A stretch of 46,318 bases of DNA, taken from Escherichia coli (GTDB taxonomy: Bacteria; Pseudomonadota; Gammaproteobacteria; Enterobacterales; Enterobacteriaceae). Of this stretch, positions 27,671 to 28,786 are shown piece after piece. Under the pieces are notes generated by a model, which worked only from the letters and a program-made list of their open reading frames with translations, did not search any database and was not told where the DNA came from. Both the position numbers and the translations under genes were made by a program. Where the stretch lies: the NCBI RefSeq assembly GCF_003334315.1, contig NZ_QOWR01000036.1; one strand, written 5' to 3'. How positions within the stretch are numbered: position 1 is the stretch's first letter; every line of letters begins with the position of its first letter.

Positions 27671-28786
27671 ATGGTTACGCCAGTAAGCATCAGCAATTAC
27701 ATATCTCTTCCTGATGATTTTCCCGTACGTAATATTGCACCGCAGGTAAAAGAAGTTTTAAAGGATTTTATTGATGCACTTAGTACAATAATATGTAATG
27801 AAGAGTGGCGCACGTCTTTAAACATCAACTCAGCCACAAAAAAGATATTTAATAACCTTGACAACTTATCATATATTCAGAGGACTTCTTTTTGGGGTAA
27901 CGACACGCTATACAATGAAAAGGTTCAGTTTAAACTCACTTATCCCGCCAGGAATGGAAGACACAAAGAAAATATTGAATTTCAGGTAGTAATAAATTTA
28001 AGCCCTATTTATTTAGATAATTTTCGCCATGATGGAGAAATTAATATTTTTTGCGCTCCCAACCCAAAGCCTGTCACTATGGGGCGCGTATTTCAGACCA
28101 GCGTCGAGCGTGTACTCTTTCTGTTTCTGAATGATTTTATTGAACAATTTCCAATGATCAACCCTGGTATTCCCATCAAAAGAGCGCATACACCACATAT
28201 TGAACCCCTGCCTTCGGATCACCATACCGCTGCAGATTACTTACGCCAGTTTGATTTGCTTGTCCTGAATTTTATCTCTCGCGGTAATTTTGTCATACTC
28301 CCCCGATTATGGAATAACTCTGAGGTTCACAGATGGTTCGTCAATAAAGATCCTAACTTGATCACCGCCATTCTCGACATAACGGACAGCGAATTAAAAG
28401 AGGATTTGTTGCAAAGCCTGATGGATTCATTAGGTTCTAACAAACATGTACTACCCGAAGTCTGCATCTGCTTTTTATCCCTTTTAGCAGAACAAGAATC
28501 TCCTCATTTTCAGAACTTGTTTTTATTTTTCGCCAATATGTTATTGCACTATCACCAATTTATGAATCCCAATGAAAGTGATTTGAATGACGTGTTGATG
28601 CCAGCATCATTAAGTGATGATAAAATTATCAAACATATGGCGCGCAGGACCCTCAAACTGTTTGTAAAAAATGAAACACCGCCAAAAGTTACTCACGAAG
28701 ACCTGGTGAAAAACAGGCCTCGCTCCCCTGTCAGACCACCTATACCCGCAACCTCCAAAACGCCAGACCTCCCTGAACGTCATTAA
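27671..28786 (+). CDS. yneK: uncharacterised protein YneK
   Basis: 371 aa; visibly AT-rich gene; Pro-rich C-terminus NRPRSPVRPPIPATSKTPDLPERH. Confidence 0.85.
   Translation: MVTPVSISNYISLPDDFPVRNIAPQVKEVLKDFIDALSTIICNEEWRTSLNINSATKKIFNNLDNLSYIQRTSFWGNDTLYNEKVQFKLTYPARNGRHKENIEFQVVINLSPIYLDNFRHDGEINIFCAPNPKPVTMGRVFQTSVERVLFLFLNDFIEQFPMINPGIPIKRAHTPHIEPLPSDHHTAADYLRQFDLLVLNFISRGNFVILPRLWNNSEVHRWFVNKDPNLITAILDITDSELKEDLLQSLMDSLGSNKHVLPEVCICFLSLLAEQESPHFQNLFLFFANMLLHYHQFMNPNESDLNDVLMPASLSDDKIIKHMARRTLKLFVKNETPPKVTHEDLVKNRPRSPVRPPIPATSKTPDLPERH

Follow-up and report, generated by a model that had tools for sequence, protein, structure and literature searches.

What is yneK, an AT-rich gene set among conserved neighbours in Escherichia coli: genuine coding DNA of foreign origin or noise of annotation? 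And if it is genuine, what could its product do? We considered these questions for a stretch of 46,318 nucleotides of E. coli DNA (contig NZ_QOWR01000036.1 of the assembly GCF_003334315.1; the whole stretch is referred to as the window), in which yneK occupies positions 27671-28786 on the plus strand as an intact frame of 371 codons, from ATG to TAA. A first-pass annotation, made from the letters alone, had taken it for a horizontally acquired orphan. We believe it probable, with some room left for doubt, that yneK is a genuine coding orphan derived from a foreign AT-rich insert, and we propose for its product the role of a non-enzymatic binding protein. The mechanistic part of this proposal (a soluble cytoplasmic binding protein, docking through its tail, expression by read-through, use in some niches) is tentative, and we would sooner expect it to be revised than to stand as a whole.

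The NCBIfam equivalog profile of YneK (NF033404) covers residues 1-371 on profile positions 1-371 with 806.7 bits at a cutoff of 40, and RefSeq calls the same stretch yneK in thousands of E. coli chromosomes, between ptrR and ydeA. The gene is already catalogued (NF033404; UniProt P76150), and its missing Pfam/KEGG annotation and narrow distribution are already in print. What is added here is the anatomy of the insertion, the recoded end of PtrR, the non-monophyletic distribution in Escherichia, a measurement of selection and a catalogue of independent inactivations. A literature search found no dedicated study of E. coli yneK; its mentions are limited to tables of genomic systematic evolution of ligands by exponential enrichment (gSELEX), an unvalidated match in a CRISPR-associated transposase (CAST) screen, a Scoary association and deletion lists. 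A Bacillus gene that bears the same name was rejected as unrelated.

The insert between ptrR and ydeA

On the minus strand lie glsB and sad; they are followed on the plus strand by ptrR, yneK and ydeA, and beyond these come marC and marRAB. The gene ptrR (formerly yneJ) encodes a LysR-type regulator of putrescine utilisation, and ydeA an arabinose exporter of the major facilitator superfamily (MFS). In sliding windows of 400 nt the content of guanine plus cytosine (GC) is 0.52-0.55 at 26800-27599, falls to 0.35-0.42 at 27600-28799 and then returns to 0.50-0.52. The GC content of the yneK coding sequence is 0.394 (0.465, 0.323 and 0.395 at the first, second and third codon positions, GC1 to GC3). 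Both its GC and its GC3 are the lowest among the 29 long ORFs (open reading frames) of the window, with z-scores of -4.0 and -3.0 relative to the other 28; the values of GC for ptrR and ydeA are 0.535 and 0.513. Its synonymous codon usage ranks first of the 29 in deviance (scaled chi-square 0.35, z 3.2), and rare codons make up 8.1% of the gene against a mean of 4.4%; a cruder leave-one-out log-likelihood measure of codon usage did not single it out (rank 6 of 29). The gene had been described as visibly more AT-rich than its neighbours, which is borne out; neither GC nor the chi-square measure gives a core-like composition.

Does this composition mark a discrete segment that relatives lack? 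The PtrR loci of 80 GTDB species representatives (6 from Escherichia, the others from other Enterobacteriaceae) were searched with YneK, YdeA, Sad and MarC. Among them, yneK is found only in E. coli (locus L008) and E. albertii (L013; also L003-L006), in the same position. At the empty sites ptrR is followed by ydeA or the ydeA promoter after 109-322 bp; such sites occur in Salmonella enterica subsp. diarizonae and arizonae, about a dozen Citrobacter loci, Trabulsiella and four Escherichia lineages (E. whittamii, Escherichia sp. E1V33, Escherichia sp. MOD1-EC7003 and the divergent "E. coli" SCPM-O-B-8794). The genes sad, ptrR, ydeA and marC are kept across these genera, in agreement with the earlier view of yneK as embedded in a core region beside a LysR-type regulator.

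The boundaries of the insert were taken from a MAFFT alignment of 12 genomes from the ptrR 3' end to the ydeA start. Homology between yneK-bearing and empty genomes stops at about 27565, in the last ptrR codons, and resumes at about 28834, just upstream of a conserved ydeA promoter block; the flanks of the insert and the empty sites align base for base. Between these points lies an AT-rich insert of about 1268 bp (27566-28833, with boundaries accurate to about 15 bp), absent from the empty-site relatives, with 39.7% GC against 52% and 50% in the adjacent 1.2 kb on either side. Horizontal acquisition, as first suggested, is well supported by the empty sites and by this insert.

The last ten or so codons of ptrR and its stop (27561-27593, plus strand) differ from those of genomes without yneK. 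At the empty sites PtrR ends in LLDTSLEQYVAAK (TSLEQYVAAK in the empty Escherichia), and in Salmonella it ends in LLNAQLASVD; the E. coli end is different. A relic of the ancestral 3' end and stop region of ptrR can be recognised in the alignment downstream of yneK (28834-28849), where GAAACGGAAAACGCGA aligns with GAAACGGCAAAATGAGA of E. whittamii. The same relic holds the right copy of a possible target-site duplication, the left copy of which is at 27570-27579 (TCGGCAAGAC in the window). In E. albertii the identical 10-mer CGACAAAACG stands at both insert junctions; the repeat is degenerate in E. coli, and the empty sites have a single copy, GCGGCAAAATG, which contains the ptrR stop codon. 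This 10-nt repeat is suggestive, short of proof, of a target-site duplication or a microhomology junction. Terminal inverted repeats of the insert were not found.

The right end of the insert carries a hairpin directly 3' of yneK (inverted repeat I2; 28796-28843, plus strand), with a folding energy of -27.1 kcal/mol and a z of -5.3 against shuffled sequences. The hairpin separates yneK from the ydeA promoter, and its stem is retained by E. albertii and by the minor E. coli allele considered below. As the hairpin has no U-run, it is not a canonical intrinsic terminator; it might stabilise the 3' end, cause a pause that depends on Rho or bind a protein, or it might be left over from the insert end.

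Some observations on the same junction in other genomes can be added. In MOD1-EC7003, the closest relative of E. coli in the set, an E. coli-type ptrR end (with GATGTGCCTGAC) is followed by a 62-nt filler and then by the ancestral ptrR stop region (L009, 6859-6920). The filler was considered as a remnant of yneK and rejected, since it has no similarity to yneK or to the other fetched loci. In Enterobacter, Klebsiella, Yokenella and many other genera the junction contains 1-5 kb of GC-rich cargo (L050, 6833-9015; L061, 6833-9562; L044, 6873-7661). Judged by eye from the translations, it encodes a GNAT-like acetyltransferase and one or two PhzF/YddE-like proteins, and in Klebsiella also a protein similar to lactate/malate dehydrogenases. 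The ptrR-ydeA junction is a repeatedly remodelled spot.

Four of the locus records have implausible organism labels: SMXE01000224.1 (L008), CACSKA010000003.1 (L047), L023 and L028. Over 9.5 kb, the contig of a metagenome-assembled genome (MAG) labelled "Caldithrix sp." has 99.6% identity to the window. A contig assigned to "Chryseobacterium sp." and two MAGs assigned to Raoultella and Pluralibacter have forms of the locus that are typical of Citrobacter/Enterobacteriaceae. These records are likely contaminated or mislabelled.

Relatives, age and selection

Does the protein have relatives elsewhere? A phmmer search of 1.84 billion cluster representatives gave 47 matches, all of them YneK or its fragments (57-100% identity). 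A word-seeded search of 5.8 billion clusters with the single sequence gave 22 clusters, and a profile built from six full-length YneK proteins gave 28 clusters in the same set at E<=1; every named match in either search comes from E. coli, Shigella or E. albertii. No relative was found by tblastn among 50,697 phage records or by a scan of 2.9 million viral contigs, and metagenome-derived protein sets had none outside the family. The sole matches by tblastn among 72,556 plasmid records were mislabelled chromosomes, and PHROGs gave sub-threshold matches only. The narrow distribution agrees with a published BLAST survey of GTDB representatives (PMC12757027). As far as these searches reach, YneK is an orphan, as had been proposed, without a detectable homologue beyond E. 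coli/Shigella and E. albertii.

The Pfam scan of YneK returned nothing significant (best E 0.28), and PDB sequence searches with the single protein and with the profile gave no match; the absence of a recognisable catalytic motif, noted earlier, is thereby confirmed. Structure prediction did not assign the protein to a known family either. With a shallow family alignment, AlphaFold gave a mean predicted local distance difference test score (pLDDT) of 45 for the full-length protein and 51 for residues 1-138. A Foldseek search of PDB and AFDB50 with the full model returned the YneK entries themselves and otherwise template modelling scores (TM-scores) of at most 0.22; CorA and smoothelin, which appeared among the matches, were discarded as meaningless at such a low TM-score. 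The models are of use only for an outline of the predicted secondary structure, in which residues 24-61 and 142-331 are helical, residues 66-128 form a beta-meander and the tail is disordered from 334.

YneK might be a single-gene anti-phage system, or another conflict system, residing in a variable chromosomal spot. The presence/absence polymorphism of yneK, its frequent loss and its deep alleles (83% and 68% identity) fit such a system, and so does the fact that the same junction carries different cargo in other genera. That cargo, however, is metabolic (GNAT, PhzF-like) and not defensive, and the Pfam scan of YneK contains no nuclease, NTPase, TIR or other effector signature. PADLOC reported 0 families for YneK of the window and a single weak match for that of E. 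albertii (SAVED-like, E 0.0046), which was not reproducible and was judged spurious. We find a defensive role very improbable.

How old is the insertion? In a neighbour-joining tree of sad, ptrR and ydeA (3.4 kb), E. albertii falls outside a group formed by E. coli and the four empty-site Escherichia lineages. The two yneK-bearing species are not sisters; therefore, at least two events are needed, which could be one gain followed by two losses, or a gain and an early transfer by homologous recombination. For yneK, the synonymous divergence (dS) that separates E. coli from E. albertii is 1.17; for the flanks it is 0.78-1.0. Since these values are similar, yneK has belonged to both lineages since roughly the time of their split, and its acquisition is old.

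The gene exists in three deep alleles: the K-12-like allele, a minor E. coli allele (83% amino acid identity) and that of E. albertii (68%). They differ by up to 34% of residues and are all AT-rich (GC 0.365-0.394, GC3 0.34-0.40), and all three retain the frame of 371 codons despite the stop-rich DNA of 36-39% GC. The minor allele is present at 99% identity or more in 14 complete E. coli genomes and at 95-99% in 86. Its haplotype (L097/L007) is divergent from the window across the whole region (dS 0.34 for ptrR, 0.59 for yneK and 0.22 for ydeA) and is possibly an import from another Escherichia lineage.

The ratio of nonsynonymous to synonymous divergence (dN/dS) relative to E. albertii is 0.17 for yneK against 0.048 for ptrR, 0.033 for ydeA and 0.068 for sad. 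For yneK it is 0.15 relative to the minor allele and 0.10-0.26 among five K-12-like alleles. Judging by these ratios, yneK is clearly coding DNA under purifying selection, which is about 3-5 times weaker than that on its neighbours.

An observation on the window allele itself may be given here. The 7.6 kb at 24400-32000 match the E. coli contig L008 except at four sites (27893, 28100, 28169 and 28754), all of which are in yneK. Each is a first codon position and nonsynonymous, with A or T in the window (W75, S144, I167 and S362), and these residues are private or nearly so relative to the closest relatives of the allele. The closest yneK in a complete E. coli genome is 99.8% identical, and none matches fully. 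This suggests very recent accumulation of mutations restricted to yneK.

Loss, expression and a possible role

Can a gene that is selected be missing so often? At least 80% of the yneK coding sequence is kept in 4263 of the 5426 complete E. coli genomes, and 1155 (about 21%) have no more than a remnant, typically the first 34 codons and the last few; a few genomes have larger deletions into ydeA. In a sample of 40 evenly spaced genomes yneK is deleted in 9, and at least 8 of the 31 "full-length" copies are disrupted. The T6 tract at 28047-28052 (plus strand) is T5 in two other E. coli (L088 and L089, both annotated as "frameshifted"), and the A6 tract at 28666-28671 (plus strand) is A5 in another (L091). 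Further disruptions are a 1-nt deletion near 28517 and a 73-bp tandem duplication after 28541. In O157:H7 codon 263 is a stop; truncated YneK products form large clusters in Shigella sonnei and S. flexneri, and E. albertii has variants with an internal deletion or a yneK-ydeA fusion. Some of the homopolymer changes could be assembly errors; the T-tract deletion is common to two strains with related yneK alleles.

The gene is also absent from the reduced-genome strain DGF-298, as a result of an engineered deletion, and in butanol-evolved strains deletions over yneK-ydeA-marC were selected, with the effect attributed to marC (bioRxiv 10.1101/143792); such laboratory deletions are tolerated. Rare structural variants (P0002, P0006, P0007, P0019; L002; L098) comprise fusions of parts of PtrR or MarR to YneK, E. 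coli deletions from the ptrR end into ydeA and the E. albertii fusion mentioned above; the region appears to be prone to deletion. The presence and the pseudogene state of yneK vary widely between strains; therefore, pan-genome associations with it likely reflect lineage. The gene is dispensable, and it has been inactivated repeatedly and independently.

It is tempting to conclude that yneK is a functionless passenger, i.e., foreign DNA that by chance carried a long ORF, now neutral or slightly costly and decaying. The large deletions in about 21% of genomes, the homopolymer frameshifts, the 73-bp duplication, the nonsense mutation of O157:H7 and the truncations in Shigella all fit this. No cost has been reported for the engineered and evolved deletions, no phenotype was confirmed in the CAST screen, and the four latest substitutions in the window allele are all nonsynonymous. 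However, a passenger would hardly have kept a dN/dS of 0.17 across a dS of about 1.2, or of 0.10-0.26 among intact E. coli alleles; nor would the 371-codon frame be expected to hold in three deeply diverged alleles at 36-39% GC, with a conserved core that reaches 83-93% identity. We regard this explanation as unlikely.

How would the gene be expressed? The spacer between ptrR and yneK is 77 nt long (27594-27670, plus strand) and has a Shine-Dalgarno-like GGGG at 27662-27665; it is conserved in both E. albertii and the minor allele. A consensus scan found no sigma-70-like site in it and some promoter-like sites inside yneK. No sigma-54 motif was found upstream of yneK and no intrinsic terminator was called in 27400-29000; Rfam, on both strands, gave only a sub-threshold miRNA match. 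As neither a promoter nor a terminator was detected in the spacer, read-through from ptrR would be the simplest route to expression. Published in vitro gSELEX data place weak signals of RpoH and NtrC in the spacer, and one of RpoS within yneK. Signals of this sort are common on AT-rich DNA.

The arrangement invites the idea that YneK is co-transcribed with ptrR and has a part in the physiology of putrescine/GABA or of nitrogen limitation, with PtrR itself or the sad-glsB pathway as its target. The gene lies on the same strand 77 nt downstream of ptrR with no terminator called between them, and an NtrC gSELEX peak (at the 40% level) has been reported in the yneJ/yneK spacer. Nevertheless, all other genera and four Escherichia lineages have ptrR-sad-glsB without yneK, and the adjacency is accounted for by the landing site of the insert. 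There is no sigma-54 motif, and AT-rich DNA gives gSELEX signals with several sigma factors. We consider a partnership with PtrR improbable.

The protein itself has 371 residues, a mass of 42.9 kDa and an isoelectric point (pI) of 6.3. It has no transmembrane-like segment (the maximal Kyte-Doolittle mean over 19 residues is 1.17), and no internal duplication was found when it was looked for. The most conserved part, at residues 141-215 approximately (28091-28315, plus strand), has 0.73-0.93 identity to E. albertii YneK in sliding windows of 30 residues, against 0.43-0.67 for most other stretches; residues 21-70 and 221-290 also reach 0.77-0.87. The conserved part includes KRAHTPHIEPL..DHH, with four invariant histidines (H173, H176, H184 and H185). 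The most variable regions are the beta-rich residues 66-135 and residues 300-348.

The C-terminal tail (residues 336-371; 28676-28783, plus strand) is basic, proline-rich and predicted to be disordered; in the AlphaFold model pLDDT is below 50 across residues 334-371. The last 35 residues, PPKVTHEDLVKNRPRSPVRPPIPATSKTPDLPERH, include 9 prolines (26% against 6.3% elsewhere in the protein) and have a pI of 10.3. Prolines, serines and threonines together make up 40%; the tail, first described as Pro/Ser/Thr-rich, is richer in proline and basic residues than in serine and threonine, and the enrichment in proline is real, though modest (binomial 2e-4, about 0.08 once corrected for all windows). The motifs RPRSPV and KTP.L.[ED]RH are invariant among the three deep alleles.

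A tail of this kind raises the possibility of a secreted, host-directed effector, e.g., of the ETT2 (E. coli type III secretion system 2) or the LEE (locus of enterocyte effacement) type III system, in which the tail would imitate docking motifs of eukaryotes. Type III systems are known from both E. coli and E. albertii. The gene is an AT-rich, lineage-restricted orphan; the YneK N-terminus is rich in Ser, Ile, Pro and Asn and has no acidic residue in its first 14 positions; PRSPVR of the tail fits PxxPxR, and SP and TP sites are present. A pan-genome study also reported a weak association with adherence to bovine cells; however, its authors think that the association is likely due to linkage. 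There is no chaperone gene, pathogenicity island or prophage nearby, the neighbours being the housekeeping genes sad, ptrR, ydeA and marC, and R355 of the PxxPxR-like motif is not conserved in E. albertii. The distribution also speaks against it: O157:H7 and Shigella have active type III systems and yet a disrupted yneK, and K-12-like commensals keep the gene intact. It is highly improbable, in our opinion, that YneK is an effector.

We return to the reading of yneK as a coding orphan with a binding role, which could have come about as follows. Foreign AT-rich DNA of about 1.27 kb would have entered the final codons of ptrR, on the near side of the ydeA promoter. The insertion gave ptrR a new C-terminal end and left yneK 77 nt 3' of ptrR, with no detected terminator or promoter between the two, and the insert ends in a strong hairpin. 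YneK may be a soluble cytoplasmic protein without enzymatic activity. Its folded body would consist of an N-terminal helix/beta-sheet part followed by a helical part, with the histidine-bearing conserved core at 141-215, and would offer to a partner protein, as a short docking peptide, the basic, proline-rich, disordered tail (RPRSPV...KTP.L.[ED]RH). YneK would be expressed weakly, chiefly through read-through from ptrR, and the gene would otherwise be kept quiet like other AT-rich foreign DNA. The protein might be useful only in some niches; if it pays off only there, lineages that do not need it would lose the gene.

Several points weigh against this reading. No integrase, insertion sequence or donor was found, the sole signature of mobility being the short 10-nt repeat, and the low GC content could come in part from weak selection and AT-biased mutation rather than from origin. 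The gSELEX signals could mean that yneK has promoters of its own, and the searched literature contains no H-NS data that cover it. Taken as a whole, the tail shows less conservation than any other region (56% identity to E. albertii), and its enrichment in proline is statistically borderline. No experiment and no homology stands behind any particular molecular function of YneK; the idea of a binding protein is built solely from the absence of enzyme signatures, a secondary structure predicted at pLDDT 45 and 51 and the conservation of short tail motifs.

A bolder variant is that YneK founds an undescribed family with a new fold and activity, e.g., a niche factor that docks a host, phage or bacterial partner through the RPRSPV...KTP tail and uses the histidine cluster for metal binding or catalysis. 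There is no relative among about 15 billion predicted proteins and the gene is under purifying selection; therefore, any function of YneK would be new. We believe that such a founder is quite unlikely.

Two other parts of the window deserve mention. The segment 44350-46000, downstream of a 427-residue ORF at 42911-44194, exceeds the rest of the window in AT content, yneK included (GC 0.31-0.35 in windows of 1.1 kb), and is probably another foreign segment. An ORF of 315 residues at 1532-2479 (plus strand), with a GC content of 0.416, ranks second in the window for deviance of codon usage (scaled chi-square 0.32), and 8.9% of its codons are rare; we take it as a further candidate for a foreign gene.

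Comparison with known systems

Daubin and Ochman reportedly described in 2004 the "ORFans", or taxonomically restricted genes, of E. coli. Like these, yneK is AT-rich, is confined to a narrow clade, evolves faster than its neighbours (0.17 against 0.03-0.07) and has no identifiable donor. It differs from them in that it is unusually long (371 residues), forms a single-gene islet within a conserved block rather than part of a prophage or an island, and has been kept since about the divergence of E. coli and E. albertii.

The silencing of xenogeneic AT-rich islets by H-NS is said to have been reported in 2006 by Navarre, Lucchini and Oshima. The insert resembles such islets in its GC content of about 40% against 50-52% in the flanks, in its sharp boundaries, and in the promoter-like sites and in vitro binding of RNA polymerase holoenzyme within yneK. 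The difference is that neither H-NS occupancy nor derepression of yneK was found in the searched texts, so that its silencing is presumed from this resemblance. The type III effectors EspF and TccP carry proline-rich tails, and YneK likewise ends in a short basic proline-rich stretch with a PxxP-type motif. However, this is a single short motif without tandem repeats, and YneK has neither sequence similarity to these effectors nor an effector-type context; secretion is unsupported.

With respect to its own family (NF033404; P76150), YneK of the window is a full-length member with no family-level difference. We conclude that yneK is a typical foreign orphan gene and no new system. It is nonetheless real, selected coding DNA and not annotation noise; its arrival as a single-gene insertion rewrote the end of a regulator gene, and it is conditionally dispensable. 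In these respects it offers a tractable case for the origin and retention of long orphan proteins.

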